Assembly (NCBI GenBank): GCA_945861275.1
Contig: CAMATZ010000013.1
Coordinates: forward strand, 2,302 to 66,301
DNA length: 64,000 bases
Source: Bordetella parapertussis
Lineage (GTDB): Bacteria > Pseudomonadota > Gammaproteobacteria > Burkholderiales > SG8-41
Direction: 5' to 3'
Program-made: the position numbers and the translations under genes
Notes under the pieces: generated by a model
Database searches by the model: none
What the model saw: only the letters and a program-made list of their open reading frames with translations
What the model was told of the DNA's origin: nothing
In this document: one piece after another, positions 5,498-34,851 of the stretch
Numbering within the stretch: the first letter of the stretch is position 1
Layout of the letters: each line of letters opens with the position of its first letter

Positions 5498-6559
5498 CTA
5501 AAACTCCCAACTTACGTTAATGGACTGAAATTTTTGCATGCCACTATTGCCCAAGGGTGTGTCGAACTCGGGGCTGCGCTGGACGTGCGTGACGGACAGC
5601 CGCAGCGGCGGCAGGCGTACGGAAAAACCTGCTTTGAGATCAGTCACAAACACCCGGCGATCCACACTTGCGCTCTCGCGAAAGCTGTTGCCATCCAGAA
5701 AAATGTTGCGGCCAACAACGCGGCTGTCAAAGCCGGCGAATACATACCATTCCGGGCGCCTGTGCGCGCCATCGGCCAGGCGTGAGCTTTGCAATAAGGC
5801 GCCGCCGGGTTCGATGGTATCGGGGCCGAAGCCGCTCATGTTTTGTCCCACGCGCACTATGCCCCCCGCACGTGCGAGCGTCATTACATTTCCCACCGTG
5901 GCGCCTGCGTGCGGCACCACTTGCAGACCTGTCGCCGGGCCATAACGCCACTTGCTCAGGTAGGCGAGCAGCACGCCCGGCTCGTTGCGGATTTGATTGC
6001 CCCAGCCCAAAGGCTGTTCGGCACCGACCAGTTTGTGCCATTCGGTTTGTACTGGTTTTCCCAGAGCTGCGGGTCCCACCATGCCCAGATCGAGTTCCAC
6101 CGTTTGCAAGCGGTCGCTGCGCACGCTTTGCGCAACGCCGCCGATATAGAGCCACGCTGCCCATGGCCGGTCCAGCGGCTGCGCTGCCGCCACGGTGATG
6201 CGCCTGGGCGTGTAGAGGTTTTGTCCGGCAAATAATCCGAGTTGAATCGCGCCCGGATCAACATCGTCCAGATGCCTGGAGATTTTCCGCAACACTGTTT
6301 TGACAGGCTCGTGAAACAGAAAATTGACCACGGGTTCGGCGCCGACGCCACCGCCAATCTTGAACCCGTTGGTGTAATAGCGATCGGTGCCCGCGCCGAA
6401 ACTGTCGTTTTCGATGAATACCTGAAACTCACAGGCAGTTTTGGCACTACACCCGATGGCTGGACCTGGCGCTTGCGGCGGCGTCTGCGCGCCGGTGGCA
6501 TGTTCCGGAGCGAGCAGTAACACCACCGCAGGTAGAATGCGGTTGATAAATCTGCGCAT
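5498..6559 (-). CDS. lpxR: Lipid A deacylase LpxR family outer-membrane protein (DUF2219)
   Basis: ENDSFG..DRYYTNG, GQNLYTP, DRPWAAWLY, RNIFLDGN, C-terminal Phe. Start placed at MRRFIN (signal peptide). Confidence 0.8.
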   Translation of the reverse strand: MRRFINRILPAVVLLLAPEHATGAQTPPQAPGPAIGCSAKTACEFQVFIENDSFGAGTDRYYTNGFKIGGGVGAEPVVNFLFHEPVKTVLRKISRHLDDVDPGAIQLGLFAGQNLYTPRRITVAAAQPLDRPWAAWLYIGGVAQSVRSDRLQTVELDLGMVGPAALGKPVQTEWHKLVGAEQPLGWGNQIRNEPGVLLAYLSKWRYGPATGLQVVPHAGATVGNVMTLARAGGIVRVGQNMSGFGPDTIEPGGALLQSSRLADGAHRRPEWYVFAGFDSRVVGRNIFLDGNSFRESASVDRRVFVTDLKAGFSVRLPPLRLSVTHVQRSPEFDTPLGNSGMQKFQSINVSWEF

Positions 6560-6657
6560 GAAGCCATATCCTTTGTTTCGAGCGGCTACAATGAAGGCTG
6601 GAGCCGCCAGCAGTGTTGCGCAGGCGTCAATTTCAAGGTAGCGGAGTATATAAAAAA

Positions 6658-7650
6658 GTGTCCGTAAAAACAAACGCTTACACAGTATATAAAGCTGGGC
6701 TCACTGGTGCACTGGCATGTGCGCTTGGTGCTGTGAGCGCCGGCGCTCACGCCCAGGCGTACCCCACCCGCCCGGTGCGCACACTGGTGCCGCTGGCCGC
6801 GGGTGGCGGCATGGACACTGTTACGCGATCTCTTTCGGTGAAGCTCGGTGAAGCTTTCGGACACACGTTCGTGGTGGACAACCGGCCCGGCGCGGGCAGT
6901 CAAATCGCACTCGACATCACATCCGCGGCTGCGCCCGACGGGCATACGCTGCTGATGATCAGCGCGACCACGGTGGTGCACCCGCTGCTGTATAAATCGC
7001 GCTTCGACATCGCGCGTGATTTCGCGCCGATTGCGCAAGTGACCGCGCAAGGCTATGTGATGGTGGTGCATCCGTCGATACCGGTGAAGTCGGCACTGGA
7101 ATTCGCGCAATATTTAAAGGCGAATCCCGACAAAATAAATTTCAGCTCGTCGGGTATCGGCAGCCTCATTCACATGTGCGGCGAACTCTTCAAAATCGCC
7201 ACCGGCACGCGCATGACGCATGTGCCGTACAAGGGCATGGGCGCGGCGTACGCCGATCTGGTGGGCGGGCACGTGCAGTCGTCGTTCCCGACGATTATTT
7301 CATCGATCTCCCACATCAATTCCGGACGCCTGCGCGCACTGGCCGTCACACCCGGCAAACGCGTGCCGGCGCTGCCGAGCGTGCCCACCTTCGCCGAAGC
7401 GGGTGTCAAAGGCGTGGTGGTGGTGAACTGGTATGGTTTGATAGCGCCATTGAAAACCCCGGCAGTCATCATTAATCGCCTCGCCGCGGAGGTCAATAAA
7501 GCGATGCAATCGCCGGACATGATGAAAAGCCTGCTCGCCGAAGGCTCGGAGGCGGTAAGCGGCTCGCCCGCCGAGTTCGCAGCGCATATGAAGGCGGAGA
7601 ATGAACAGTGGGCGCGCGTGGTTAAGGCGGCGGGGATACGCGGGAACTAG
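6658..7650 (+). CDS. Bug/TctC substrate-binding protein
   Basis: AQAYPTRPVR..AAGGGMD, DNRPGAG, HVPYKG. Start approximate. Confidence 0.9.
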   Translation: MSVKTNAYTVYKAGLTGALACALGAVSAGAHAQAYPTRPVRTLVPLAAGGGMDTVTRSLSVKLGEAFGHTFVVDNRPGAGSQIALDITSAAAPDGHTLLMISATTVVHPLLYKSRFDIARDFAPIAQVTAQGYVMVVHPSIPVKSALEFAQYLKANPDKINFSSSGIGSLIHMCGELFKIATGTRMTHVPYKGMGAAYADLVGGHVQSSFPTIISSISHINSGRLRALAVTPGKRVPALPSVPTFAEAGVKGVVVVNWYGLIAPLKTPAVIINRLAAEVNKAMQSPDMMKSLLAEGSEAVSGSPAEFAAHMKAENEQWARVVKAAGIRGN

Positions 7651-7654
7651 CGGG

Positions 7655-7743
7655 CAGTGTTTAGTTTGGAGTGTTAAGTCGTGAGTTAAGCGTGCTGCTG
7701 CGTGCTGGACCACTCAAAACTCAGGACTCAGCACTCGGCACTG
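7655..7743. repeat. Degenerate inverted repeat built of 7-bp units between convergent genes
   Basis: Left cagtgtttagtttggagtgttaagtcgtgagt; right actcaaa-actcagg-actcagc-actcggc-actg. Confidence 0.65.
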
Positions 7744-7748
7744 TCGTC

Positions 7749-8480
7749 CTAAGCCTTCGCCGCCACCGTCAGTCCGCGCACCTGGTGTTTCTCGATGGTG
7801 CGTGCGACCCATCCGCTGGCTTTGACCTCTTCGATCAGTTCGCTTAGGTATTGCGCAGCGGCGGGGCGGCCTTTCGGCGTGCCGGCAGCTTGTTGCACGG
7901 CGGTGAAGTTGCCGTCGAGGATGCGTGAGCCGGGCAGATTGCCTTGATCGGTGATCAGCCGCGGACGCAGTCCGGCGAGCGCATCGAGTTTGCCGTCGAC
8001 GAATTTCTTGAACACGGTATCCGCGCCTTGCTCGCGGACGAGCTCGGCGTTTTTCAGGTTGCGCGTGAGATAAAGGTCGTAAGCGGACTTGCCCGAAATG
8101 GCAATGCGCATGCCTTTGGCGTCCACTTCGGCAACGGTCTTGAGAGGAGATCCCGGCGGCACCAGATAGGTCGCTTCGATTTCCACATAGGCGGCGGTGA
8201 AATCGATGGCGTTGGCGCGCTGCGGCTCCGCGCCGAGAAAGCCTACATCCCACTTGTTCTTGTCGGCGTCGTCGGCGAGCAAGCCCGGATTGGGATAGGG
8301 CACCAGTTCGACTTCAACACCAAGACGTTTGCCGAGTTCGCGGCCGAGGTCAGGCGCGAGTCCGATCGGCGCGCCTGCGGCATCTTTCGCGGTCAGTAAA
8401 AAGTTGCTCATGTTGAGGCCGACACGAAGCTTGCCGGTGGGGGTGAATTCGGTGCGCGCGGCGGCGGAGGGAGTAGTCAT
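7749..8480 (-). CDS. ABC transporter substrate-binding protein (polar amino acid family 3)
   Basis: PTGKLRVGLN, WDVGFLG, IDFTAAYVEIEATYLV, GKSAYDLYL. Confidence 0.85.
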   Translation of the reverse strand: MTTPSAAARTEFTPTGKLRVGLNMSNFLLTAKDAAGAPIGLAPDLGRELGKRLGVEVELVPYPNPGLLADDADKNKWDVGFLGAEPQRANAIDFTAAYVEIEATYLVPPGSPLKTVAEVDAKGMRIAISGKSAYDLYLTRNLKNAELVREQGADTVFKKFVDGKLDALAGLRPRLITDQGNLPGSRILDGNFTAVQQAAGTPKGRPAAAQYLSELIEEVKASGWVARTIEKHQVRGLTVAAKA

Positions 8481-8541
8481 GGTGGTGGCCTTTGAGGTTG
8501 GGGATTTTTGGATAATGCGTACGATCAATTCTTACAATAGC

Positions 8542-9942
8542 CTAGCGCTTACCCAGCAACTGCGCAATCCTGGCGGCATCGTCAAGTTTATCCAAACCAA
8601 GCATCGCATCGCGCAGCTGTTCGACCTGCGTTTGGGGCAATGCCTTAACTGCCAGCTTTTCGAATTTATCCACGATATCGGCTTCACTGGCGAATTTGTA
8701 TTCGCTGCCGCGTGCGGATTCGACCGTGCGCTCCATGCGTGTGCCGTCATGCAGAAACACTTCAACGCGCACTTTGTGACGGTACTTGGCGCCCAGACGG
8801 GTGATGGCGTCGTCGTGATGCACTTCGACGATTTCGGAAAGCTTCATGCGCGCCGGATCGGCCACCATTTTCTCGGTGAACTGATCGACAAAACAATCGC
8901 CGTCGAGCAGCCAGGTGGCGATGCAATACGGCAGATTCAACTGCGCCGAGGTCAGCCCCTGCGGCAGGTATTTCCAGCCCACATGATCCATCGTCACCTG
9001 TGAACCGTGCACGGAAATTTTTCGCACATCCTTCGCGCCGAAGGCTTTTTCGGCCTGCATTTCGCGTATAGCGTCGAGCGTGGTGTGGTTGCTGCCCACA
9101 CACGAATAAAACTTGAGCGCGACACCCATGGTCTGCCACACGCTGCCGAAACCGGCGGTGAGTTCCTTGAGATCGTAGCGATCGTGCGAGCGCGAAAAGG
9201 TGCTGCAAAAGCCGCCGTATTCGCTTTCCAGAACATTGACGATGCCGGTGAAGCCGGATGCGGCGAGCAGCGCACCATACAAACCGGATTGCGATGCGCG
9301 GCCGGCATGCATGCGTTTGACCATCGCGCCATATTGCGCGGCCATCAGCCCGGCGGCTTGCGTGCCGGCGATGCCCAGCGCGTGCACGGTTTTATCCACA
9401 TCCAGTTCGAGGGCGCGCGCAGCGCCGGCTGCGGAAGAAAACACGCCCAGTGTCGCGCCCGAATGCCAACCCTGCGCGATGTGATCGGGCCGCATGCACA
9501 GGCCCACGCGCGGACCGATTTCGTAACCGGCGACGGCGGCCGTCAAAAACGCCTTGCCGCTCATGCCCGGCTTCATTTCGCTAAGCGAAATCAGCGAGGG
9601 CAGCACCACCGCGCCCACGTGCAACACGCCCGCGCGATGCACGTCGTCGAGTTCAAAGCCCTGCACCTGCGTGCCGTTGACGAGTGCCGCATGCGGCGCG
9701 GACAGTTTCAGAGCGGTGCCCCACACGTTGCAGCGGCGTGAGTCATCCACGCGCGTCAGCGTGTCTTGCAGTATTTTGCTCCACTCAAGATCGGCGCCAT
9801 AAAGCGCACAGCCGAGCGCATCGAGCATCAGCAGTTTGATGCGCGCTTTGACCTCGGCGGGAATCGCGTCGTAGCTAAGGCCCGACACAAATTGCGCGAT
9901 GCCGCGGGTGTAAGGATTGTCGTTGGATGCTTCGTGGCTCAT
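8542..9942 (-). CDS. MmgE/PrpD family protein
   Basis: AALVNGT..GFELDDVH..VLHVG, KRMHAGRA, KFYSCVGSNH. Confidence 0.92.
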   Translation of the reverse strand: MSHEASNDNPYTRGIAQFVSGLSYDAIPAEVKARIKLLMLDALGCALYGADLEWSKILQDTLTRVDDSRRCNVWGTALKLSAPHAALVNGTQVQGFELDDVHRAGVLHVGAVVLPSLISLSEMKPGMSGKAFLTAAVAGYEIGPRVGLCMRPDHIAQGWHSGATLGVFSSAAGAARALELDVDKTVHALGIAGTQAAGLMAAQYGAMVKRMHAGRASQSGLYGALLAASGFTGIVNVLESEYGGFCSTFSRSHDRYDLKELTAGFGSVWQTMGVALKFYSCVGSNHTTLDAIREMQAEKAFGAKDVRKISVHGSQVTMDHVGWKYLPQGLTSAQLNLPYCIATWLLDGDCFVDQFTEKMVADPARMKLSEIVEVHHDDAITRLGAKYRHKVRVEVFLHDGTRMERTVESARGSEYKFASEADIVDKFEKLAVKALPQTQVEQLRDAMLGLDKLDDAARIAQLLGKR

Positions 9943-24036: not shown

Positions 24037-25041
24037 TCAGGGCTTTACAACCGGACTTGCGGCGGACTGCATTTGCTGGGACGGATAAACCGGCGCCAGA
24101 AAATCACGGTTGATTTCGTCGGCCAGCGCCAACAGCTTGTCGAGAAATTCCATCAGATACTCATGCAAGCCGGCATTGAAGATGAGCGAGGTGCGTCCGT
24201 AATGCAGTTGCGCGTGCAGCTCACCCGCGAGCCGCTCAGCCTCGCGCGAGGCGTTGTCGCACAAATTCTGCAGGATGACATAGATGTCGTTCATGCAGGC
24301 ATGCAGCGAACGCGGCACGTCGTCGCGCAGGATCAGCAGTTCCGCCACCTTCACCGGCGTGATCAAATCGCGGTACACCTTGCGGTAGGAATCGAACGCG
24401 GAGAGCGATCGCAGCAGTGCGCCCCACTGGTAGTAATCGACGGCACCCCCGACATCGGCGGCGCTTGGCAGCAGCGTGTGGTACTTCACGTCGAGCAGGC
24501 GCGCGGTGTTGTCGGCGCGCTCCATGAAGGTGCCGAGCCGGATGAAACTGTAACCCTCGTCGCGCAGCATGGTGCCGAAGGTTACGCCACGGAACTGGTG
24601 CGAGCGTATTTTCACCCAGTCGAAAAACTCACCCAGTCCCTCGGCCTGCAATCGCACGTAATCCTTATTGCGCATTTCCAGCCACAAGCCGTTGATATCC
24701 TCGTACATTTCAGAGGTGATGGCGCCGCGCACGGTGCGCGCGTTCTCGCGCGCCGCCTGCACGCAGGAATACAGACTCGAGGGATTCGCCGGGTCCAGCA
24801 CCATGAAGCGCAAGACATTATCGGAGGTTATCGGGCCGGGATAACGGTCGTAGTAGGCGCTGGCAAGTCCGTGGATCACCAGCGGCAGTGCCCACGGCTC
24901 CGCCCACGATTGGCCGGATTCCTGAACGCGGTAGGGCAGCAGGGACATGCGATAGGTCACATCGAGCAGGCGCGCAGTGTTCTCGGCGCGCTCGATGTGG
25001 CGCGACATCCAGTAGAGATTGTTGGCGGCGCGGCTTAGCAT
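24037..25041 (-). CDS. Alpha-E domain protein (DUF403)
   Basis: MLSRAA..YWMSRHIERAEN, ARENAR, second ERADNTAR motif. Confidence 0.92.
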   Translation of the reverse strand: MLSRAANNLYWMSRHIERAENTARLLDVTYRMSLLPYRVQESGQSWAEPWALPLVIHGLASAYYDRYPGPITSDNVLRFMVLDPANPSSLYSCVQAARENARTVRGAITSEMYEDINGLWLEMRNKDYVRLQAEGLGEFFDWVKIRSHQFRGVTFGTMLRDEGYSFIRLGTFMERADNTARLLDVKYHTLLPSAADVGGAVDYYQWGALLRSLSAFDSYRKVYRDLITPVKVAELLILRDDVPRSLHACMNDIYVILQNLCDNASREAERLAGELHAQLHYGRTSLIFNAGLHEYLMEFLDKLLALADEINRDFLAPVYPSQQMQSAASPVVKP

Positions 25042-25050
25042 GGTGGGTTC

Positions 25051-25124
25051 AGTGAAAAGTGAAGAGTGAAGAGTGAAGAGTGAGCCGTGATGGCGTGAAG
25101 GGGTGAATGCTCTTCACTCTTCAC
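25051..25124. repeat. 7-bp tandem array (GTGAAGA-like) overlapping the 3' end of the ATP-grasp gene
   Basis: agtgaaa-agtgaag-agtgaag-agtgaag...ctcttcactcttcacg. Confidence 0.85.
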
Positions 25125-26550
25125 GGTCTACATCGCCTTCAAGCACCCAAGTATCCTTGGTGCCGCCGCCTTGCGACGAGTTCACCACCAGTGAACCCTC
25201 GCGCAGCGCCACGCGGGTGAGACCCCCTGGCACCAGCGACACGGTTTTTCCCGACAGCACGTAGGGGCGCAGATCAACGTGACGCGGCGCAATGCCCGTG
25301 TCGCAGAACGTGGGACAGGTAGACAGCGCCAGCGTCGGTTGCGCGATGTAGTTGGCGGGATTGTGCAGGATGCGCTCGCGGAAATCGGCAATCTGCTGCA
25401 CGCTCGACGCCGGGCCCACCAGCATGCCAAAGCCGCCCGAACCCTGAACCTCCTTCACCACCAGCTCCGGCAGATGGCCGAGCACGTACTTCAGATCGTC
25501 AGCGCGATCGAGGCGCCAGGTCGGCACGTTGGGAATGATCGGTTCCTCGCCCAGATAAAAACGGATCATCTCCGGCACGTAGATGTAGGTCGACTTGTCA
25601 TCAGCGACGCCGCTGCCGATGGCGTTGGCGAGTGTTACGCGGCCGGCGCGATAGGCGGCAAACAGTCCCGGCACGCCGAGTGTGGAATCGGCGCGGAATG
25701 CCAGCGGATCGAGATAATCGTCGTCGATGCGGCGGTATATGACATCCACTTTTTGCGGGCCGCGGGTGGTACGCATGTAGACGGTGTTGTCGGCGACCGA
25801 CAAGTCCTGCCCCTCGACCAGTTCCACGCCCATTTGCTGCGCGAGGAAGGCATGCTCGAAATAGGCGCTGTTATAGGCGCCCGGCGTCAGCACCACCACC
25901 ATCGGATTGGTGACGCCTGCGGGCGCCACCGCCCGCAGGTTATCGAGCAGGACATCGGTGTAGTGGTCGATTGGCGCCACCGGCATGAGCGAAAACAGCT
26001 GGGGAAACAGCCGCATCATCATTCTGCGGTTCTCCAGCATGTACGAAACGCCGGACGGCGTGCGCAGGTTGTCCTCGAGCACGTAGAACTCGTCCTGGCC
26101 GGTCTTGACGATATCAACGCCGGCGACATGCACGTAAACATCGCCGGGCACGTCGACGCCGCGCATTTCCGGGCGGTAAAGTTTATTGCCCAGTACTTGC
26201 TGCTCGGGTATCAATCCGGCCTTGATGATTTCCTGCCCATGATAGATGTCCTTGAGAAAAGCGTTGAGCGCGCGCACGCGCTGGCAGGCGCCGTCATTGA
26301 TGGTTTTCCACGCGTCCGCACGCACCACGCGCGGAATGATGTCGAACGGGATCGAGCGCTCCATGCCACCTTCGTCACCGTAGACCGCGAAGGTGATGCC
26401 CAGCCGCGTGAACAGGGTGTCGGCTTCACGCTGCTTTTGCAACAGAAAATCGAGCGGCTTCGCGTTCAGCCATCCGGCGTACGAGTGGTAGTGCGCACGT
26501 ACCGCGCCGCCCTCCTCGTACATCTCGTTATAGATTGCTGGCCTGCTCAC
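25114..26550 (-). CDS. Circularly permuted type 2 ATP-grasp protein (DUF404/407)
   Basis: VLEDNLRTPSGVSY, YRRIDDDYLDP, GVADDK, RHVDLRP, VNSSQGGGTKDTWV. Confidence 0.92.
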   Translation of the reverse strand: MSRPAIYNEMYEEGGAVRAHYHSYAGWLNAKPLDFLLQKQREADTLFTRLGITFAVYGDEGGMERSIPFDIIPRVVRADAWKTINDGACQRVRALNAFLKDIYHGQEIIKAGLIPEQQVLGNKLYRPEMRGVDVPGDVYVHVAGVDIVKTGQDEFYVLEDNLRTPSGVSYMLENRRMMMRLFPQLFSLMPVAPIDHYTDVLLDNLRAVAPAGVTNPMVVVLTPGAYNSAYFEHAFLAQQMGVELVEGQDLSVADNTVYMRTTRGPQKVDVIYRRIDDDYLDPLAFRADSTLGVPGLFAAYRAGRVTLANAIGSGVADDKSTYIYVPEMIRFYLGEEPIIPNVPTWRLDRADDLKYVLGHLPELVVKEVQGSGGFGMLVGPASSVQQIADFRERILHNPANYIAQPTLALSTCPTFCDTGIAPRHVDLRPYVLSGKTVSLVPGGLTRVALREGSLVVNSSQGGGTKDTWVLEGDVDREE

Positions 26551-26596
26551 GGCATTGCCCCGGATTTGAGCCTAATTACCTTCCAGCCGCAGAAGG

Positions 26597-26612
26597 TGCA
26601 ATCACCGTGCCA
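26597..26612 (-). promoter_or_regulatory. Sigma54 -24/-12 promoter for the ATP-grasp/alpha-E/Anbu/transglutaminase operon
   Basis: Minus strand reads TGGCACG-GTGA-TTGCA, matching TGGCACG-N4-TTGCW, 46 bp upstream of the start codon. Confidence 0.85.
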
Positions 26613-26675
26613 GTACCGGCAGGTTATGCGGAATTATTATATAGCTCATTGTTTTCAAATATCATTCTTATGAAC

Positions 26676-26767
26676 GCCGGCTAAATGGTGTACCCCATCG
26701 CGGACACCACTATACCGGTATGCACCGCTTTGGACAGCGCTCAAACGATACACCCGAAATGAGTGCA
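26676..26767. promoter_or_regulatory. Putative NtrC-type enhancer sites
   Basis: TGCACCgcttTGGacag (26721-26737), ...gaGTGCA (26751-26767) and ...TGGTGtA (26676-26692) partly match TGCACCA-N3-TGGTGCA. An IHF-like site lies at 26642-26654. Confidence 0.5.
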
Positions 26768-26920
26768 CAGCCATAGATGTTCGCGGGCGCTGTTACGCCA
26801 GGGCCGGGGCTAACACCCGGCGCGTTGCCCCCGCGAGACACGGGAAGCGCGCACTCAACGTGGCGGACACGAGGGCATGGTGCGGTAAGATGCGCCTTTT
26901 GTCACTCTGGTTTTTTGTCC

Positions 26921-27661
26921 ATGACTTATTGCGTCGCAGCCCTGACTGATCGCGGCATCGTGTTCGCCTCCGATTCCCGCACCAATGCCGGCGTGGACCA
27001 ATTGGCGACATTCAGCAAGATGACAGTGTTCGAGGTTTCGGGCGAGCGCGTGGTGGTGCTGTTGTCGGCGGGCAATCTGGCATCGACGCAAAGCGTGATC
27101 AGCCTGCTCAAGCTGCGCATGAGAAGCGAACAGGGCGAAATCAACGCCGGGGGAATGCTTGGGCTGCGCAGCCTCTACGACACTGCCGCGCTGGTCGGCG
27201 ATACCGTGCGCGAAGTGGTGGCGCGCGACGGGCCGGCGCTGACGCAGGAGAGCATCGATCCGGGCTGCACCTTCATTCTCGGCGGGCAGATAGCAGGCAA
27301 ATCGCAACGCCTGTTTCATATTTATCCGCAGGGCAATTTCATCGAGTCGAGCACCGACACCACCTATTTTCAGATTGGCGAGAGCAAGTACGGCAAACCC
27401 GTGATCGACCGTGTGGTCAAGTACGATACGTCGCTGAAGGATGTCGCAAAATGCCTGCTGGTGTCTTTCAACTCCACCATGCGCAGCAATCTGTCGGTGG
27501 GACTGCCTATCGATCTCGTGGTGTATGAGAAAGGCGCGCTGCGGGTCACGCTGCGGCGGCGCTTCGCGGAAGACGATGCCTATTTCTCCGAGATCGGGCG
27601 CTTCTGGTCGACCGGGTTGCGGCGGGTGTTTGCGGAAGCGCCGGACGTGCCGTGGGACTGA
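26921..27661 (+). CDS. Anbu proteasome-type protease, copy 2
   Basis: True start is MTYCVAALTDRGIVFASDSRTNAGVD..SK; FQIGESKYGKP. The ORF track start at 26777 is too far upstream. Confidence 0.9.
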   Translation: MTYCVAALTDRGIVFASDSRTNAGVDQLATFSKMTVFEVSGERVVVLLSAGNLASTQSVISLLKLRMRSEQGEINAGGMLGLRSLYDTAALVGDTVREVVARDGPALTQESIDPGCTFILGGQIAGKSQRLFHIYPQGNFIESSTDTTYFQIGESKYGKPVIDRVVKYDTSLKDVAKCLLVSFNSTMRSNLSVGLPIDLVVYEKGALRVTLRRRFAEDDAYFSEIGRFWSTGLRRVFAEAPDVPWD

Positions 27662-28875
27662 CGGTGGACGATATCCAGGTGCGTCCGCGCCGTTCCTTTG
27701 CCGATGTGGATTACCCCGAGGCGCTGCGCCGCGCGCGCGCCATGATTCCCTTCCTGAAAGCGCGTGCTGAAGCGCAGGAGGAAGCCACGCGCATGACCGA
27801 TGATGTGCTGGAGGCGTTTCATGAAAACGGCCTGCTGCGCTATATGCAACCCAAAGCCTGGGGCGGCATGGAATTGCCTTATGTGTCGATGGTGGATTTG
27901 ACCGATCTGCTGGGGCAGGGCGACGCGTCATCGGCGTGGACGTTTACCAACTTGAGCGCGCATCACCGGCTGCTTGCGATGTGGGAACCCAAGGCACAGG
28001 AAGAAGTGTGGGGCGCAAATCCCGACGCCGGTATTGCCTCGGGCATTGCCTATATACAAGGCCGCGGGCGGCGCGTGGATGGCGGGCTGGAACTGTCGGG
28101 CCAGTGGGGATTCTCGTCGGGTGTGGATGTGAGCGAGTGGAACATGCTGGCGTGCGTGGTGCGCGACGGCGACACGCCGGTGGACTGGTGCATGTGTCTG
28201 GTGCCGAAATCCGATTACGAAATCATCGACGACTGGCAGACGCTGGGTATGCGCGGCACCGGCAGCCGTTCAGTGCGCTGCAAGGAAATTTTTGTGCCGG
28301 CGCATCGTGCGTTGTCGATGCAGGTGGCCAAGCCGGGGCACGAATTTCCCGGCTTGAAAGTGCATACCAATCCCATCTACAAAATTCCGCTATCGGGTTT
28401 TGGCGGCTATGGCATCGGCGGCTCGATGATCGGCAATGCGCAAGCCGCGCTCGACGCCACCATCGAAAATGTGAGGGCGCGCAGCACCAGCTACACCGGC
28501 GCAAAAATGCGTGATTTTCAGGCAGTGCAGCAGCGGGTTGCGCATGCGGCGGGCAAGATCGAAGCCGCTCGCGTGTGGCTGCGCAACGATTGCATCGAGG
28601 CACATGCGGTGGCGAAGGCCGGCGGCACCTTTGACACCCTGACCAAGCTCAAATACCGTCGCAACAGCGCGCTGGCAACGCGGATGGCGACCGAGGCCGT
28701 GGATATCCTGCATGAGATGGCGGGCGCCAATGGCATTTACGACAGCTTTCCGATTCAACGCTATTTTCGTGATGCGCACGCGGCGGCGGGCCACATTAAT
28801 TTCAGTGTCGATGCGCAATTGCCGGCGTGGGGGCTGGTGGCGTTGGGCGGGGAGTTCAAGAGTCCGACGTTTTAG
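27652..28875 (+). CDS. ACAD-fold flavin-dependent monooxygenase, paralog 2
   Basis: QPKAWGG, GQWGFSSG, DDWQTLGMRGTGS, QRYFRDAH; overlaps the Anbu copy 2 stop. Confidence 0.85.
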   Translation: MGLTVDDIQVRPRRSFADVDYPEALRRARAMIPFLKARAEAQEEATRMTDDVLEAFHENGLLRYMQPKAWGGMELPYVSMVDLTDLLGQGDASSAWTFTNLSAHHRLLAMWEPKAQEEVWGANPDAGIASGIAYIQGRGRRVDGGLELSGQWGFSSGVDVSEWNMLACVVRDGDTPVDWCMCLVPKSDYEIIDDWQTLGMRGTGSRSVRCKEIFVPAHRALSMQVAKPGHEFPGLKVHTNPIYKIPLSGFGGYGIGGSMIGNAQAALDATIENVRARSTSYTGAKMRDFQAVQQRVAHAAGKIEAARVWLRNDCIEAHAVAKAGGTFDTLTKLKYRRNSALATRMATEAVDILHEMAGANGIYDSFPIQRYFRDAHAAAGHINFSVDAQLPAWGLVALGGEFKSPTF

Positions 28876-28934
28876 GCTTGAGGTGTTGAAAAAACGATTC
28901 TCGTTCCCTAAGCGGCGCACCCAATCCATACGGT

Positions 28935-29100
28935 GTCTCATGTGGCACGGCGTTATGGGTTCCCGCCGGCGCGGGAACGACAAGGTTGGTTTTGATCCAC
29001 CTGAGCGCCGGTTGAAGCGCTATAGGCAAAGGAGCAACCCATGACCGCCAGCATCCTTCTCTACGACCCCACCGCCCCGCGCGCGAAAGTGCCGGCCCAG
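28935..29100 (+). repeat. 166-bp direct repeat, copy 1 (REP arm, RBS and first 20 codons of the selenoprotein gene)
   Basis: Aligns without gaps to 29828-29993; 11 mismatches by manual count (about 93% identical). Confidence 0.92.
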
Positions 29101-29127
29101 ACTCGCAAGCCGCATCTGCCTGCTTGA
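29041..29127 (+). pseudogene. Truncated duplicate of the selenoprotein N-terminus (28 aa)
   Basis: AAGGAG RBS then MTASILLYDPTAPRAKVPAQ-TRKPHLPA*; the first 20 aa are identical to the ORF at 29934. Confidence 0.8.
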
Positions 29128-29152
29128 AGTTTATCGTTGACCGATATACAAT
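29124..29152 (+). promoter_or_regulatory. Sigma70 promoter of higBA with operator-like palindrome in the spacer
   Basis: TTGAAG-17 bp-TACAAT; spacer contains TATCG-ttgac-CGATA; higB ATG starts 7 nt after the -10 box. Confidence 0.75.
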
Positions 29153-29158
29153 CAGTTA

Positions 29159-29434
29159 ATGATCAGGACCTTCCGCTGCACCGACACCCAAAGTCTGTTC
29201 AACGGCGCACGGGTGCGGCGATTCGTGAACATCGAGGCGGTAGCGCGCCGAAAACTGGAAATGGTGGCGGCTGCCAAGAAGCTGGAAGACTTACGGTTCC
29301 CACCTGGCAACCGGCTGGAAGCTCTGAAAGGCGACCGCGCTGGGCAGCACTGCATCCGCGTGAATGATAAGTTCCGCGTTTGCTTTCGCTGGAATGACGG
29401 CGCGGAGAATGTTGAGATCGTAGACTATCACTGA
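29159..29434 (+). CDS. higB: HigB/RelE-family toxin (plasmid maintenance killer type)
   Basis: PPGNRLEALKGDRAGQHCIRVNDKFRVCFRW...VEIVDYH. Confidence 0.93.
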   Translation: MIRTFRCTDTQSLFNGARVRRFVNIEAVARRKLEMVAAAKKLEDLRFPPGNRLEALKGDRAGQHCIRVNDKFRVCFRWNDGAENVEIVDYH

Positions 29435-29446
29435 AGGAGAACTGTC

Positions 29447-29776
29447 ATGTCCAAGAAGCTGCTGCCACCTATCCACCCGGGCGAAATCCTGCGCGAAGAG
29501 TTCTTAAAGCCACTGGGTCTGTCCGCCAACGCGCTTGCGCAACGTCTTGGTGTGACGGCCGCGCGTGTCAACGAGATCGCAAACGAGCAGCGCGGCATCA
29601 CGGCAGACACCGCGCTGCGACTGGGGCGCTGCTTTTCCACTACACCAGAATTCTGGATGAACCTCCAGCAGCGGTATGAGTTGGAGGTTGCCCGCCGAGA
29701 AGTCGGCGTGGCGGTGGAACGTGAAGTTGCGGCACTCGTCTTGGTGGGCGGGAACGTTCATGCTGCTCATGCCTAA
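29447..29776 (+). CDS. higA: HigA family antitoxin (HTH)
   Basis: PIHPGEILREEFLKP, ITADTALRL, FWMNLQ; toxin-first gene order. Confidence 0.93.
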   Translation: MSKKLLPPIHPGEILREEFLKPLGLSANALAQRLGVTAARVNEIANEQRGITADTALRLGRCFSTTPEFWMNLQQRYELEVARREVGVAVEREVAALVLVGGNVHAAHA

Positions 29777-29827
29777 CTTTAGCTGCACCGGACGCGCTGA
29801 AGCACGTCGGTGAGCATGACGTTAGGC

Positions 29828-29993
29828 GTCTCATGTGCCATGGCCTTATGGGTTCCCGCCGGCGCGGGAACGACAAGGTTGGTTTTGATCCACCTGAGCG
29901 CCAGTTGAAGCACACTATGCAAAGGAGCAACTTATGACCGCCAGCATCCTCCTCTACGACCCCACCGCCCCGCGCGCGAAAGTGCCGGCCCAG
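29828..29993 (+). repeat. 166-bp direct repeat, copy 2
   Basis: Partner of 28935-29100; contains the functional start of the selenoprotein gene. Confidence 0.92.
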
Positions 29994-30485
29994 GTGGAAA
30001 CCGCCCGGCCAACGCTCGAATCGCTCGCCGGCATGGTGGTGGGATTCATCGATAATGCGAAACCCAACTTTAACCATCTCGCGGACGACATCGGCGAATT
30101 GCTGATCAGCAAGTACGGCGTGAAGCAGGTATTGAAACGCCGCAAACGCGCGGCTTCGGTGCCCGCGCCAGATGACGTCTACAAGGAATTTACCGAGCAT
30201 TGTGACCTGGTAATCACCGGGTCGGGTGACTGAGGCTCCTGCACGTCGTGGAGTATCCACGACAGTGTAGAGATGACCAAACGCGGTAAGGCGGCGTTGA
30301 CGATTTGCTCGACGGCTTTCAAAACGCTGGGTCACGCGCAGGCGTCGGCGCTGGGCAAAAAAGATTTGCCGATTGCCGTGATGCCGCATCCTTTCGGGCT
30401 GCGCAAGCGTGATGAGGTGCGCGCGATCGCTGAAAAATGCGCGGACGACATTGCGCAGATGATGACCAGGGCGGGGGCGAAATGA
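29934..30485 (+). CDS. UGSC-family selenoprotein, 183 aa, Sec at codon 100 (TGA 30231-30233)
   Basis: ORFs 29934-30233 and 30273-30485 are in the same frame. Readthrough gives LVITGSGD-U-GSCTSWSIHDSVEMTKRG (UxxC motif), and a SECIS-like hairpin follows the TGA. Confidence 0.88.
30239..30270 (+). promoter_or_regulatory. Putative bacterial SECIS hairpin
   Basis: CTGCAC-GTCGTGGA-[GTA]-TCCACGAC-A-GTGTAG: perfect 8-bp upper stem, G first in the loop, 19 nt between UGA and loop. Confidence 0.8.
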
Positions 30486-31519
30486 GCAGCGCAGTCACCT
30501 TCGAAGCCCTCGATGATCTCGACGCCATTAACCAGCTCTACCGCGAACGCCGCTGGAGCGACGGCCTGCCCATCGTGCCGCCGACGCGTGAGCGCGTGGC
30601 GCGTATGCTGGCTGGCACGCAGCGCAAGCCCGCTGAGCTCATCGCGATGTTGCCGCCCGGATTCGGCGAGGCGACGGTGGAGCGCATCGCGATTAACGCG
30701 GTAATGGCGGGTTGCGATCCCGCATACCTGCCGGTGTTGATAGCGGCCACCGATGCCGTGGCGCAGGCGCAGTTTAATATTCAGGGTATCGAGGCGACCA
30801 CCAATTCGGCGGCCGTGTGGCTGGTGCTGAATGGCCCGATAGTGCAGCAGCTCGAAGTTAACGCCGCGTTTAATTGTCTCGGTCAGGGCACGTGGGCGAA
30901 CGCGACTATGGGGCGCGCAATGCGGCTGATACTGCAAAACATCGGCGGCGCATTACCCGGCGACATGGACCGTGCGACGCAGGGGCAGCCCGGCAAGTAC
31001 ACGTTCTGCTGTGGCGAAAACGAGGCGCACAGCCCGTGGGAGCCGCTGCATGTGGAACGCGGCTTCGCGCGCGACGTGAGCACAGTGACGGTGGTGGCGG
31101 CCGAAGGCACACTCAACATGAACACGCACTCGAAGGAGGCCGGCGAGTTGTTGCGCGTGATCGCCGAATCAATGGTGCATCCCACCAGCAACGAATATTG
31201 TCATGGCGGCGAACCGTGGCTGGTATTTGCGCCGGAACATGCGGACATCCTCAAAGCGGGTGGCTTTAGTAAACGCGATGTTAAGCAGCGCTTGTGGGAA
31301 CTCACCAAAATGCCGGCGCGCTGTTTGTCAGCGAATGAAATTTTGCGCGCGCAGGCCTCTCGTTCTGATGAGTATGGCGAAATCAAACCGGACACGTTGT
31401 TAAGCATTTCGCGCACGCCCGACGACATCTGGTTTATCGTCGCCGGTGGGCCGGGTACGCATTCGGTGTATGTGCCGTGTTTTGGCAACTCGCTAGCGGT
31501 GACTCGGGAAATATTATAA
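30482..31519 (+). CDS. Uncharacterised UGSC-associated partner protein
   Basis: ATGA overlap with the selenoprotein stop. Motifs WSDGLPIVPPT, IAINAVMAGC, ANATMGRA, GQPGKY, PEHA, GGPGTHS. Confidence 0.8.
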   Translation: MSSAVTFEALDDLDAINQLYRERRWSDGLPIVPPTRERVARMLAGTQRKPAELIAMLPPGFGEATVERIAINAVMAGCDPAYLPVLIAATDAVAQAQFNIQGIEATTNSAAVWLVLNGPIVQQLEVNAAFNCLGQGTWANATMGRAMRLILQNIGGALPGDMDRATQGQPGKYTFCCGENEAHSPWEPLHVERGFARDVSTVTVVAAEGTLNMNTHSKEAGELLRVIAESMVHPTSNEYCHGGEPWLVFAPEHADILKAGGFSKRDVKQRLWELTKMPARCLSANEILRAQASRSDEYGEIKPDTLLSISRTPDDIWFIVAGGPGTHSVYVPCFGNSLAVTREIL

Positions 31520-31542
31520 CTTATTGTTTTTAAAGGAAATTT

Positions 31543-32517
31543 ATGTTTAGCAGGAAACTCGCCTTCGGGATTACCGCAGTGCTTGCCGCACTGTGCATGG
31601 CACAGGGCTATGCACAAACCGGCGACTATCCCAATCGTCCGATACGCCTGATTACACCGGCGCAACCGGGCGGCACCACCGATATTCTCGCGCGGGTGTT
31701 CGGCGCGCGGCTCGCCGAAACGTACAAGCAGCAGATCGTGGTTGACAATCGCGCAAGCGCCGCGGGTGTGATCGCAGGCGAGCTCACGGCGAGAGCTGCG
31801 CCGGACGGCTACACACTGTTCATGGCCTATCATCAGCACACCGTCACCGCGGCGCTGAATCCCAAACTGCCGTATCACGCGGTCAACGACTTCACGCCGA
31901 TTTCGCAACTGACGCGGGCAGGATTAATACTCGTCATCAATCCCTCGTCGCCGCCGAAGAACCTCAAGGAATTCATCGACTGGACCAAAAACTTCAAAGG
32001 CGCGCTGAACTTCGGCTCGGCGGGCACCGGCAGCGGTGGTCACCTTGCCGGCGAACTCTACAACCTTGCGACAGGCATCAAGGCCGCGCATATTCCGTAC
32101 AAGGGCTCGGCGCCGTCGCTGATCGACCTGGCCGCCGGGCAATACCACTACAATTTCGTCGGCATGCAAGCCGCGCAGGCGCTGGTACGTGGCGGCAAGC
32201 TGCGCGCGCTGGCGGTGACCGCGCCGCGGCGTGTGGGCGCATACAAAGACCTGCCTGCGGTAGCGGAATCGCTGCCCGGCTTTGAGGTTGTCGGCTGGTA
32301 CGGTGTCATGGGGCCGGCAAAACTACCGAAGCCCATCGTCGGTAAGCTGCACGGCGACCTGGTCAAATTTCTAAATGCGCCGGATATCCGCGACCGCATC
32401 GTCGCCGATGGCTCCGAGCCGGTAGGATCGGAACCGGAAGCGTTCCGGCTGTACCTGTTGGCCGATATGGCGAAATGGGCGAAGCTGGTGAAGGAGAGCG
32501 GGGCCAAGCTGGATTGA
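31543..32517 (+). CDS. Bug/TctC substrate-binding protein
   Basis: YPNRPIRLITPAQPGGTTD, HIPYKGS. Confidence 0.92.
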   Translation: MFSRKLAFGITAVLAALCMAQGYAQTGDYPNRPIRLITPAQPGGTTDILARVFGARLAETYKQQIVVDNRASAAGVIAGELTARAAPDGYTLFMAYHQHTVTAALNPKLPYHAVNDFTPISQLTRAGLILVINPSSPPKNLKEFIDWTKNFKGALNFGSAGTGSGGHLAGELYNLATGIKAAHIPYKGSAPSLIDLAAGQYHYNFVGMQAAQALVRGGKLRALAVTAPRRVGAYKDLPAVAESLPGFEVVGWYGVMGPAKLPKPIVGKLHGDLVKFLNAPDIRDRIVADGSEPVGSEPEAFRLYLLADMAKWAKLVKESGAKLD

Positions 32518-32529
32518 TTGACTGCAACG

Positions 32530-32626
32530 GCGTGAAGGGGTGAATGAGTGAACGGGTAACCTCGCGCTGTGATCCTTCGCCTCCGGTAAGGGGAGAGCGG
32601 GATTTCACTCGTTCACTTATTCACGC
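32530..32626. repeat. 7-bp GTGAA-type inverted array
   Basis: gcgtgaaggggtgaatgagtgaacg...ttcactcgttcacttattcacgc. Confidence 0.75.
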
Positions 32627-32657
32627 AGTTATCAAAATTTTGTGGCGGAAGAAACCT

Positions 32658-33626
32658 ATGTGGTCAAATTTTCTTAAGGTATGGACGTGTGTTGGCGCAT
32701 TGGCGTTGGTGTCCGGTTTATCCAGCGCTTACGCACAGGCGCCCGCCGATGGCTCGGTGCGCGAGAAAGATATCCCGCTCACGGTGACTGAAGTCGCGCC
32801 GGGGTTGTTTTTTCAGTATCACCATCAGGAGTCGAACAATGCCTGGCTGGTGACCAGCGACGGTGTGCTGGTGATCGACACGCGCCAGCATCCCAGGCGC
32901 GGCGAGGAACTGCTGGCCGCGATCCGCAAGACCACGGACCAGCCGATAAAGTACGTGATCAACACGCATGCGCACGGCGACCATTATTTTGGCAACCCGG
33001 TATTCAAGCGTGAAGGCGCAATATTCATCGCACATCGCGATACCCAGCGCATGATGCAGGCCCATCACGGCGTGGAAATGAAACGCCGCCAGGGCTACTT
33101 TAAGCAGACGAAATTTGATCCGGCCGAGGTGCAGTTGGTGCTGCCGGACATGACTTTCGATTCGAAGCTGACGCTTACCCTCGGCGGGCGCAGCGTAGAG
33201 CTGCTGTATTTCGGCGCGGGGCAGAATCCCGGCGACACGCTGGTGTACTTCCCGCAGGAACGCGTGATGTTTTCCGGCGGTCCGTTCTCGAAAAACAGCT
33301 GGCCTAATCCGCAGTTCACGCCCTCGATGGGTAACTGGGTGGCGTTGCTGCGCAGGATTGCAGCGATGGATGTAGACAAATTTCTCGGCGGGCATGGCGA
33401 CATAGGCGCCAAAGCGGATGTGTTGAACGAAGCGCAGATGCTGTCGGACTTTGACGCGGGCATGCGTGATGCGGTGAAAAAGGGTATGAGCCGCGACGAA
33501 ATACTCAAGAGTGAGCCGTTCGCGAAATACAAAGACATACGCAATTACTACCGCATGAATTTGTTTATTAACAGTTATTATCATTTTCTGATCACCGGCA
33601 AGCCGCAAGTGCCTCTGCCGGAATAA
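32658..33626 (+). CDS. Secreted MBL-fold protein with degenerate metal ligands
   Basis: Signal peptide ending AYA; NTHAHGDH; GAGQNPGD; FSGGP; GGHG. Confidence 0.8.
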   Translation: MWSNFLKVWTCVGALALVSGLSSAYAQAPADGSVREKDIPLTVTEVAPGLFFQYHHQESNNAWLVTSDGVLVIDTRQHPRRGEELLAAIRKTTDQPIKYVINTHAHGDHYFGNPVFKREGAIFIAHRDTQRMMQAHHGVEMKRRQGYFKQTKFDPAEVQLVLPDMTFDSKLTLTLGGRSVELLYFGAGQNPGDTLVYFPQERVMFSGGPFSKNSWPNPQFTPSMGNWVALLRRIAAMDVDKFLGGHGDIGAKADVLNEAQMLSDFDAGMRDAVKKGMSRDEILKSEPFAKYKDIRNYYRMNLFINSYYHFLITGKPQVPLPE

Positions 33627-33645
33627 TACGAATGAAGAAAGCGCA

Positions 33646-34851
33646 ATGACAGCAACCAGCAACACCAATAATTTCGCTGATGTTACGTATGACCAGGCCA
33701 TGCAGCGTGCGCAGGACCTGCTTCCCTTTCTGCGCGAGCACGCTGCGGCAGGCGAACGCGCCACGCGCATGCTGCCGCAAGTCGAGGCCGAACTGCATCG
33801 GGCAGGGCTGTTCCGTTATCACCAGCCGAAATCATGGGGCGGCATGGAGCTCGAGTTCATCGCCTATTTTGATATCCCCGAAATGCTCGCGCGCGGCGAC
33901 TGCTCGGTGGGCTGGAACATCGCCAACTTGAGTTCGCACCATCGCAATGTGGCGATGTTCTGTGAACAGGCGCAGCAGGAAATGTGGGGCGAAAACCGCG
34001 ACTGCCTGGTGGCCTCGGGGATAGCCTTCGCGCAGGGCCGCGGGCAGCCGGTGGAGGGCGGCCTGCTGTTGAGCGGCCGCTGGTCGTTTTGTTCGGGGGT
34101 CGATATTGCGCATTGGAACATGCTCGGTTGTCAGGTGCGCGAGAATGATCAGATCATCGACTATCGCTATTGCATGGTGCCGCGCGCCCAGTACGAGATC
34201 ATCGACGACTGGCAGACCCTCGGCATGCGTGGCACCGGCAGCCGTTCGGTACGCTGCGACAACGTGTTCATACCCGAGCACCGCACACAGTCGATGTATG
34301 CGGCGAAACCGGGGCATGAGTTCCCGGGGCTGCGCATCAATACCCACCCGGCGTTCAAAGTGCCGACATCATCGCTGGGCGGGCATTGCATCGCCGGCGC
34401 CATTGTCGGCAATGCGCAGGCCGCAGTTGACGCCACGATAGAGATGGTCAGGTCGCGCAGCACCAGTTACACGGGTGCTGCGATGCGTGATTTTCAGAGC
34501 GTGCAACTACGCGTCGGCGCCGCGGCCGCCAAGGTTGATGCCGCGCGGGTGGTGCTGCGTAATGATTGCCTGGTGGCCGATGCCGCCGTCAAAGCGGGAA
34601 AAACGCTCGACCTGGAGGAGAAATTGCGCAACAAGCGCAACTGCGCGGCAGCGGTGAAGCTGTGCACCGAAGCGGTGGATACACTGATGGAAATGTCCGG
34701 CGCCAACGGCATATACGACACTGCGCCGTTGCAGCGCATGTTTCGTGATGCGCACGCCGCCGCCGCGCATATCAACTTCAACGCCGACGTGCAGTTAGCG
34801 CCGTGGGCGCTGGTGCAGTTTGGCGGCGAGTTCAAATCGCCGGTGATGTAA
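33646..34851 (+). CDS. ACAD-fold flavin-dependent monooxygenase, paralog 3
   Basis: QPKSWGG, GRWSFCSG, DDWQTLGMRGTGS, QRMFRDAH; closest to paralog 2. Confidence 0.85.
   Translation: MTATSNTNNFADVTYDQAMQRAQDLLPFLREHAAAGERATRMLPQVEAELHRAGLFRYHQPKSWGGMELEFIAYFDIPEMLARGDCSVGWNIANLSSHHRNVAMFCEQAQQEMWGENRDCLVASGIAFAQGRGQPVEGGLLLSGRWSFCSGVDIAHWNMLGCQVRENDQIIDYRYCMVPRAQYEIIDDWQTLGMRGTGSRSVRCDNVFIPEHRTQSMYAAKPGHEFPGLRINTHPAFKVPTSSLGGHCIAGAIVGNAQAAVDATIEMVRSRSTSYTGAAMRDFQSVQLRVGAAAAKVDAARVVLRNDCLVADAAVKAGKTLDLEEKLRNKRNCAAAVKLCTEAVDTLMEMSGANGIYDTAPLQRMFRDAHAAAAHINFNADVQLAPWALVQFGGEFKSPVM

Follow-up and report, generated by a model that had tools for sequence, protein, structure and literature searches.

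Selenoproteins that carry the motif U-G-S-C (U, selenocysteine, Sec) were reportedly described as the UGSC-containing family by Zhang and Gladyshev in 2007. The relevant passages of their 2008 survey of the Global Ocean Sampling (GOS) metagenome list 255 Sec and 21 Cys forms of UGSC proteins, guess a thioredoxin-like fold for them, and describe the fusion of UGSC to 'Unknown_1', a conserved domain bearing a conserved Cys (Zhang and Gladyshev, 2008; PMC2398784). A survey published in 2016, covering over 5200 genomes, counts, in the sections that treat the family, 33 UGSC genes in 26 organisms; it calls 'selenoprotein-rich' an organism with six or more selenoprotein genes, states that most such organisms are anaerobic, and gives the largest selenoproteome as that of Syntrophobacter fumaroxidans, with at least 39 (PMC5029168). 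The passages on UGSC in reviews of 2022 (PMC9312934) and 2026 (PMC13188914) assign it no function, and we found no functional study of UGSC in the full-text literature, a body of text that leaves subscription journals outside its coverage. Here we describe a UGSC gene and the gene for its 345-residue partner protein in a 64,000-nucleotide stretch of a Burkholderiales genome (contig CAMATZ010000013.1 of assembly GCA_945861275.1), referred to below as the window.

The window gene resembles the described family in that its product passes both family models and carries Sec in U-G-S-C, with a selenocysteine insertion sequence (SECIS)-like hairpin following the codon, and in that Sec forms far outnumber Cys forms. 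It differs in the setting, since the home genome contains 24 UGSC genes and other genomes of the genus 13–36 each, compared with the 33 genes in 26 organisms given in the sections cited above (PMC5029168). What is new here is this expansion of paralogs, and a quantified link to solute-binding proteins adds to its interest; the UGSC family and its fusion were already described in 2007–2008.

The UGSC gene encodes a genuine selenoprotein

To keep the UGSC frame open, an in-frame TGA (codon 100; Table 1) must be read as a residue, and this TGA supplies the U of the motif GSGD-U-GSC. The translated product passes PF24696 and, barely, NF041046 (scores in Table 1). A PF24696 search of the home genome (G000; 5.5 Mb in 95 contigs) found TGA at the Sec position in all 24 UGSC paralogs, exactly one per gene. 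The 80 loci from other genomes (see below) contain 81 UGSC domains; the Sec position is TGA in 76 of them and encodes Cys in one and Ser in another, while the remaining three domains are cut. Sec is retained, then, in 76 of the 78 alignable foreign domains, or in 100 of 102 when the home genome is counted.

Downstream of the TGA, after an 11-nt spacer, positions 30245–30252 pair with 30256–30263 to form a hairpin (−24.2 kcal/mol, z = −6.3) whose spacing and loop we take to be the geometry of the Escherichia coli fdhF element. Covariation was examined in 48 UGSC genes, 23 from the home genome and 25 from other phyla. The cells of the hairpin are paired in 79.7% of cases versus 67.6% in shuffled sequences (0 of 500 shuffles reach the observed value), and slid registers give 23–47%. 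Compensatory changes occur in seven of the eight pairs; pair 21–27, for instance, is split between G-C (23 sequences) and C-G (21 sequences). RNAalifold returned no consensus structure for the 48 sequences because a minority of the paralogs use a hairpin register shifted by one base.

The home genome carries selA and selB on contig C6 with a tRNA-Sec gene beside them (found with aragorn). The selD gene (G000:C21:19971-20891, locus L053) itself contains one in-frame TGA, and SelD here is probably also a selenoprotein. Because the TGA lies in the UGSC motif, the family models are passed, the hairpin covaries, and selA, selB, tRNA-Sec and selD are present, we conclude that the UGSC gene encodes a genuine selenoprotein.

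The predicted model of the UGSC protein (predicted local distance difference test, pLDDT, 94.7) is a five-stranded α/β sandwich with the element order β-α-β-α-β-α-β-α-β-α, and places Sec100 at the N-terminus of the helix formed by residues 101–116. The top Foldseek and VIA matches of this model are flavodoxin-like or Rossmann-like, with no thioredoxin among the 50 best of each. On this predicted model, the fold is probably generic flavodoxin-like and not the thioredoxin fold guessed in 2008. Assignment of UGSC as a DsrE-type or thioredoxin-type carrier found no specific support and was dropped; 472 chains match with Z ≥ 8, all of them generic α/β proteins. A sequence search of the Protein Data Bank (PDB) with UGSC gave only chance matches to ribosomal proteins. 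Across 49 sequences the invariant positions are the Sec position, Gly118 and Phe129, and a Cys three residues after Sec (U-x-x-C) is retained in 97 of 102 UGSC domains. Neither a signal peptide nor a membrane segment was found in the sequence of the selenoenzyme.

UGSC and its partner are two halves of one enzyme

The stop codon of the UGSC gene overlaps the ATG of the partner gene in the sequence ATGA (30482–30485). A first-pass annotation of the window had drawn attention to this coupling, which is present as described, and had proposed that the selenoprotein and its partner form a two-subunit unit. The wider survey bears the proposal out. The home genome contains 24 UGSC places (PF24696) and 25 partner places, which combine into 21 adjacent pairs: 11 in-frame fusions and 10 split pairs, five with UGSC first (U-P; one cut by a contig end) and five with the partner first (P-U). 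Three UGSC genes and four partner genes stand alone.

Searching species-representative genomes with the partner gave at least 613 stretches, 605 of them confirmed, from which 80 loci were kept; these come from Beta-, Alpha- and Deltaproteobacteria, Methylomirabilota, Chloroflexota, Poribacteria, Binatia, Acidobacteriota, Actinomycetota and one Bacillota isolate. A UGSC domain lies within 1.3 kb on the same strand in 66 of the 80 loci by a strict rule, and inspection of L062, L072 and L131 brings the number to 69, so that the co-occurrence of partner and UGSC that the first-pass annotation had asked of other genomes is indeed found. Several of the 11 loci without UGSC are on short contigs or are Poribacteria sequences that match just ~280 of the ~350 model positions.

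Pairwise identities among UGSC sequences correlate with those among their partners (r = 0.82 over 90 pairs, Mantel 0/999), a figure that shared descent inflates; the correlation within the home genome (r = 0.80, 19 pairs) is the fairer one. The correlated identities indicate that duplications copied the UGSC-partner unit whole, and the paralogs of the home genome have since diverged to 16–63% identity. Because of the 11 fusions, the 21 pairs, the adjacency in 69 of 80 foreign loci and the correlated identities, we conclude that UGSC and the 345-residue protein are two halves of one enzyme, which elsewhere is a single fused polypeptide. The message of the window is that the selenoprotein acts with a partner, not alone.

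The arrangement matches the 2008 fusion in that UGSC is joined to a conserved domain with a conserved Cys, here as 11 in-frame fusions within one genome alongside split forms in both gene orders. It departs from it in extent, since the partner family found here is very large and spread over many phyla. Unknown_1 is likely the partner family, judging by the paper's text description alone of the domain drawn in its Figure S1A (PMC2398784).

The partner matches no family in Pfam or NCBIfam at E ≤ 1e-3. Its predicted model is of high quality by the model's own scores (pLDDT 96.5; predicted template modelling score, pTM, 0.94). No chain in the PDB was matched when all of them were searched with the partner profile, and fold searches gave no Foldseek match at E ≤ 1e-3 and no VIA match at Z ≥ 5. 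In the ESM Atlas the partner retrieves only unnamed clusters of its own family, one of which is auto-named 'Thioredoxin family protein'. The family comprises 5368 clusters at 50% identity (E ≤ 1e-3), a very large family without a name or a solved fold. Many members are 410–460 or 530–570 residues long, lengths that fit the post-TGA half of UGSC plus the partner and the full fusion, respectively. Gene callers split every UGSC gene at the TGA, and many of the database entries of 410–460 residues apparently consist of the rear part of UGSC joined to the partner.

Conservation was counted across 128 partner domains, per alignable column. Asp27 (118/118), Arg145 (116/116), Glu179 (116/116) and Gly322 (112/112) are invariant, and Asn140 (114/116) and Cys78 (113/116) nearly so. 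The first-pass annotation had listed several Cys/His motifs in the partner. All of the quoted motifs are present in the partner of the window, but conservation is limited to three residues within them, namely Cys78 (of AVMAGC), Glu179 (of FCCGENE) and Gly322 (of GGPG). Most of the motifs vary, Cys176 of FCC, for example, being retained in just 13 of 116 domains, and a reading of them as conserved metal or redox sites is not supported. FCC, EYCH and PEHA were rejected as conserved sites on these counts.

Some further members of the home-genome set may be mentioned here. The lone partner genes are L032 (C15), L040 (C33), L044 (C51) and L037 (C31), and the lone UGSC genes are L039, L049 and L050; some of these lie in housekeeping contexts (holA, lptE, leuS, RNase E), and several adjacent open reading frames (ORFs) have no Pfam family. 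Two U-P copies, L047 (G000:C66) and L036 (G000:C28), are near-identical on different contigs, one of them at a contig end, and the C66 copy is flanked by a two-partner-secretion pair (TPS/ShlB) on one side and an HTH_38 protein on the other, which suggests that the duplication is recent or the context mobile. The most divergent fusion (L041, G000:C37:49995-61867; positions 4809–8546) has the motif H-U-STCAP and a partner domain without Cys78.

Transport genes and local neighbours

All features of the locus are on one strand, in the order given in Table 1; the same-strand gene run read at first pass stands, as judged from ORF lists, translations and family scans. The gaps between the genes from partner to monooxygenase 2 are 23 nt (partner-Bug), 26 nt (Bug-MBL, where MBL denotes the metallo-β-lactamase fold) and 19 nt (MBL-monooxygenase 2).

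Table 1. Features of the UGSC locus (window coordinates). ACAD, acyl-CoA dehydrogenase.
Feature	Position	Strand	Evidence
Monooxygenase 1, HsaA/HpaH-like flavin-dependent oxygenase component, ACAD fold	27652..28875	+	NF045629 295 bits (cut-off 450), PF08028 116.9 bits
Direct repeat, upstream copy, 169 nt	28932..29100	+	93% identity to 29825-29993
HigB-like toxin, type II toxin-antitoxin	29159..29434	+	PF05015 61.1 bits
HigA antitoxin	29447..29776	+	TIGR02607 115.8 bits (cut-off 47.7)
Direct repeat, downstream copy, holds live UGSC gene start	29825..29993	+	Repeat comparison
UGSC-family selenoprotein, 183 aa	29934..30485	+	PF24696 162.3 bits (cut-off 25), NF041046 125.6 bits (cut-off 125)
In-frame TGA = selenocysteine, codon 100	30231..30233	+	Motif GSGD-U-GSC, paralog/homolog conservation
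SECIS-like hairpin, 8-bp stem, loop GUA	30245..30263	+	Folding energy, covariation
Partner protein, 345 aa	30482..31519	+	No Pfam/NCBIfam family
Bug/TctC periplasmic solute receptor, signal peptide	31543..32517	+	PF03401 202.3 bits (cut-off 27)
MBL-fold protein, SoxH-related	32544..33626	+	PF00753 69.8 bits; TIGR04559 121 bits (cut-off 280)
Monooxygenase 2, HsaA-like, paralog of monooxygenase 1	33646..34851	+	Family scans, pairwise comparison

The Bug protein that follows the partner begins with a signal peptide (MFSRKLAFGITAVLAALCMAQGYAQ). The home genome has 526 Bug/TctC genes among 4623 crude gene calls (11%), compared with only eight TctA matches. Of the 21 UGSC-partner pairs, 13 directly adjoin a Bug gene, against 17.8% for non-Bug genes (binomial p = 8.9e-6), and 15 have one within two genes, against a background of 30.6%; the Bug link of the pair asserted at first pass is confirmed by this enrichment. 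The locus is like the TctABC systems, and the 'Bug' expansion, in having an adjacent TctC-family receptor, and a paralogous locus on contig C62 has the full order fusion-TctC-TctB-TctA. It is unlike them in that neither TctA nor TctB was found among the 13 proteins scanned at the window locus, the eight TctA matches being on other contigs.

Among the 80 foreign loci, a Bug gene lies within 300 nt in 14 of the 23 betaproteobacterial loci and in none of the 57 others. The neighbour scan for the other phyla took in the nearest 91 of 214 candidate ORFs, in 41 loci, and components of other transporters adjoin seven of these (NMT1 four times, SBP_bac_1/6, SBP_bac_5, and DctM of the tripartite ATP-independent periplasmic, TRAP, type). 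The UGSC-partner unit travels with a periplasmic solute-binding protein, which is Bug/TctC in Betaproteobacteria and belongs to other families in other phyla.

The remaining neighbours vary. They include Amidohydro_2 and MmgE/PrpD proteins, family III CoA-transferases, short-chain dehydrogenases, enoyl-CoA hydratases, thiamine pyrophosphate (TPP) enzymes and NHL-repeat proteins, and the oxygenases found near pairs are of the luciferase-like, TauD, GMC, HpaB and P450 families. Besides the transport genes, the neighbours are enzymes of acid and CoA-ester catabolism. A TrxB-like flavoprotein of ~300 residues adjoins three of the 41 other-phyla loci (L076, L091, L097), flavin reductases adjoin loci L085 and L088, and in the home genome a 307-residue thioredoxin-reductase-like flavoprotein overlaps the end of the C37 fusion, which has a DctP (TRAP) receptor upstream. 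In the chromosome of a cultured Robertmurraya sp. isolate (Bacillota; L077, 37–12641) the pair lies inside a PrpR-type, sigma-54-controlled operon with genes for a thiolase, an enoyl-CoA hydratase, MmgE/PrpD, a TRAP permease, DUF6282, Ldh_2, a thioesterase and MaoC.

These surroundings bear on the idea that the module is no catabolic enzyme at all, and serves as a general antioxidant or as a regulatory accessory of uptake by Bug-type tripartite tricarboxylate transporters (TTT); it might be a peroxidase-like scavenger, for instance, or sense redox state. In favour of this are the tight linkage of the module to binding proteins and the reviews that, where they touch on the subject, place most orphan prokaryotic selenoproteins among the redox or antioxidant proteins. 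We nevertheless find the idea scarcely credible, as 24 diverged paralogs in differing catabolic neighbourhoods fit substrate specialisation better, the invariant Asp, Arg and Glu of the partner look like those of a substrate-binding catalytic domain, and some copies of the module adjoin transporters that belong to families other than TTT.

The two monooxygenases (407 and 401 residues) share 234 identical residues and score 295 and 297 bits against the HsaA model NF045629, under its cut-off of 450; they are relatives of HsaA without being equivalogs. The 13 proteins scanned at the window locus included no flavin reductase. The MBL-fold protein has a signal-peptide-like N-terminus. It had been called degenerate at first pass, a description that holds in part; its HxHxDH motif (THAHGDH) is intact, which rules out a fully degenerate protein. 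Both monooxygenases and the MBL gene are probably co-transcribed with the pair.

The first-pass annotation had taken the monooxygenases, UGSC, partner, Bug and MBL genes together as one pathway, which would make them an operon for a single substrate (an organosulfur compound or aromatic acid, for example) in which the selenoenzyme handles the product of the oxygenases. The common strand, the gaps of 19–26 nt from the partner to monooxygenase 2, and the position of monooxygenase 1, which adjoined UGSC before the higBA genes were inserted, are in keeping with such a pathway, as are weak matches of the monooxygenases to SfnB and DszC. Oxygenases of other families also recur, both in the other-phyla loci (luciferase-like in four of 41, plus TauD, HpaB and P450) and near pairs in the home genome (TauD, luciferase-like, and flavin-containing monooxygenase, FMO). 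However, homologs of the monooxygenases and of the MBL protein occur in none of the 80 related loci (phmmer, E < 1e-10) and beside none of the 27 other UGSC or partner sites in the home genome, and the closest orthologous loci (L054-L060, L114) carry Bug genes in the positions that the monooxygenases and MBL occupy here. A pathway specific to this locus is therefore unlikely; both monooxygenases and the MBL protein are local neighbours, outside the conserved module of UGSC, partner and binding protein.

Monooxygenase 1 lay directly upstream of UGSC before the insertion of higBA. Both HigBA models are passed (Table 1), with a 12-nt gap between higB and higA, and the two genes are bracketed by the 169-nt direct repeat. 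Each copy of the repeat holds a REP-like palindrome, a ribosome-binding region and the first 20 codons of UGSC, and the full 169-nt span was found in these two copies only. The bracketing repeats indicate that the insertion of higBA into the 5' end of UGSC was accompanied by a long duplication, and a 5' UGSC remnant is left from 29041 onward. The palindrome, GTTCCCGC-N4-GCGGGAAC, has 41 copies genome-wide when 2–8 bases are allowed between the arms (for example C5:133826, C27:52070 and C66:21692); several are intergenic and beside other UGSC units. Metagenome contig depth shows a ~10-fold spike at 28820–29063, and contigs from four DNA runs show assembly breaks at the repeats. Other UGSC units of the home genome also have toxin-antitoxin genes (YhaV/PrlF, Phd, HigB_toxin, PIN) beside them, at L026 4491–5329, L034 8314–8685, L039 7060–7533 and L041 8890–9312.

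The upstream block at 24037–27661 encodes, by family scans, an Alpha-E protein, a circularly permuted ATP-grasp protein and a proteasome-like peptidase, a set that we take to be an Anbu-type operon unrelated to the UGSC module. The last gene of this block runs 10 nt past the start called for monooxygenase 1. Downstream of the locus, a gene for a PilT-type ATPase lies on the opposite strand.

Proposed function and spread of the module

Our best explanation of the whole, held with moderate confidence, is that the module is a genuine two-part selenoenzyme that travels with a binding protein, most likely a thioredoxin-fed selenol/thiol reductase that acts on an imported organic acid. The flavodoxin-like UGSC domain would carry the Sec100-x-x-Cys103 redox pair and present it to an active site in the partner made up of Cys78, Asp27, Asn140, Arg145 and Glu179, where Arg145 would hold the carboxylate of the substrate. 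The selenolate would attack the substrate, and the adduct would then be resolved by Cys103, Cys78 or both, giving a selenenylsulfide. Overall, a small organic acid taken up via the adjacent binding protein would undergo a two-electron reductive step, after which the enzyme may be re-reduced by a donor of the thioredoxin or thioredoxin-reductase type. The logic of selenolate attack and resolution is that of D-proline reductase and the methionine sulfoxide reductases.

The redox part of this proposal draws on the Cys at +3 of Sec (97/102), on Cys78 (113/116) and the invariant Asp27, Arg145 and Glu179, and on the TrxB-like and flavin-reductase neighbours. The imported-acid part draws on the Bug enrichment, the TctABC order at C62, the other transporter components and the neighbouring enzymes of acid and CoA-ester catabolism. 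Several observations weigh against the proposal. A dedicated reductase adjoins few loci only. Five of 102 UGSC domains have no +3 Cys and three of 116 partners no Cys78, so neither thiol is strictly required. Bug genes are so abundant in the home genome that adjacency alone is weak evidence, and only the enrichment counts. The neighbouring enzymes, finally, are very diverse, many of them O2-dependent oxygenases, and point to no single substrate class.

A comparison with known reductases gives likenesses of design. The Stickland reductases (PrdA/PrdB, GrdB/GrdE) likewise combine a U-x-x-C selenoprotein with a second catalytic polypeptide. They differ from the pair in that neither of its proteins matches GRDB (PF07355) or Gly_reductase at E ≤ 1e-3, no sign of a pyruvoyl proenzyme was seen here, and the hosts are rich in O2-dependent enzymes. 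By analogy, the pair may work like these reductases while not belonging to their family. The methionine sulfoxide reductases and ArsC, which are regenerated by thioredoxin, offer a second likeness, as the three thiol/selenol groups of the module suggest a catalytic-plus-resolving relay and TrxB-like neighbours occur in a few loci; the difference is that they have no sequence or fold relation to UGSC or the partner.

The scarcity of reductases invites a redox-neutral alternative, in which the module is an isomerase, racemase, epimerase or lyase acting on a carboxylate, with Sec100 and Cys78 as an acid/base or nucleophile pair. Such thiol pairs are at work in the two-thiol racemases and in maleate isomerase. 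Most loci have no reductase nearby, the conserved Cys of the partner could face Sec, the MmgE/PrpD and enoyl-CoA hydratase neighbours carry out redox-neutral chemistry, and the few members without a +3 Cys would fit as well. We regard this alternative as distinctly improbable, however, given that 97 of 102 domains retain the U-x-x-C spacing that typifies redox pairs and that TrxB-like and flavin-reductase genes adjoin the pair in several independent phyla.

The fold searches with the partner raise another alternative. The best matches, and the only ones to recur, are class I fumarate hydratases (Foldseek E = 1.8e-3, template modelling score, TM, 0.24; VIA Z 4.5, root-mean-square deviation 4.7 Å over 175 residues), where the resemblance, to the α subunit or N-terminal domain, is weak. 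Fe-S L-serine dehydratase is also among the matches (Z 2.5–2.6). Class I fumarate hydratase and Fe-S serine dehydratase ligate their cluster by three Cys, and the conserved thiol/selenol groups of the module number exactly three, so that Sec100, Cys103 and Cys78 might be the ligands of a metal or Fe-S site in an enzyme of the hydro-lyase kind; dehydratase-type neighbours are common. Against this, a TM of 0.24 and a Z of 4.5 are not evidence of a shared fold, as both values lie below what unrelated models usually reach by the tool's own notes; there is no sequence relation to fumarate hydratase, and the profile search of all PDB chains was empty. Fe-S hydro-lyases of these kinds are oxygen-labile, whereas the hosts carry many O2-dependent enzymes, and we know of no Sec-ligated Fe-S cluster. 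A metal site is accordingly very unlikely in our judgment, and we continue to prefer a thioredoxin-fed reductase.

The number of UGSC genes in the home genome is not peculiar to it. UGSC matches number 13–36 in each of 20 other genomes of the genus and 7–12 in four other genera of the family, and occur in two of 16 other families of the order (19 and 6 matches); every match listed across these relatives has one TGA. The home genome has at least 25 selenoprotein genes counting selD, nearly all of one family, and many O2-dependent enzymes besides. The expansion is a trait of the lineage; the genus belongs to the freshwater Burkholderiales, and the source of the window is a lake bacterium.

A bolder proposal, which we offer tentatively and think possible without expecting it, is that the module is a new class of selenocysteine enzyme, its catalytic domain having an unsolved fold, that radiated within one genus to 13–36 copies per genome alongside more than 500 Bug receptors, each copy catalyzing a substrate-specific reductive or lyase step on a different imported carboxylate. 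If this is true, these oxygen-using bacteria would be among the most selenoprotein-rich organisms known. The expansion already challenges the view, as the relevant sections of the 2016 survey put it, of selenoprotein-rich bacteria as mainly anaerobes (PMC5029168). Since 2007–2008 UGSC has ranked with the most plentiful orphan selenoprotein families of aquatic metagenomes, according to the passages that treat such families. The pairs of binding protein and enzyme described here make its function testable, and the bolder proposal, if true, would provide the first functional handle on 'orphan' Bug receptors.

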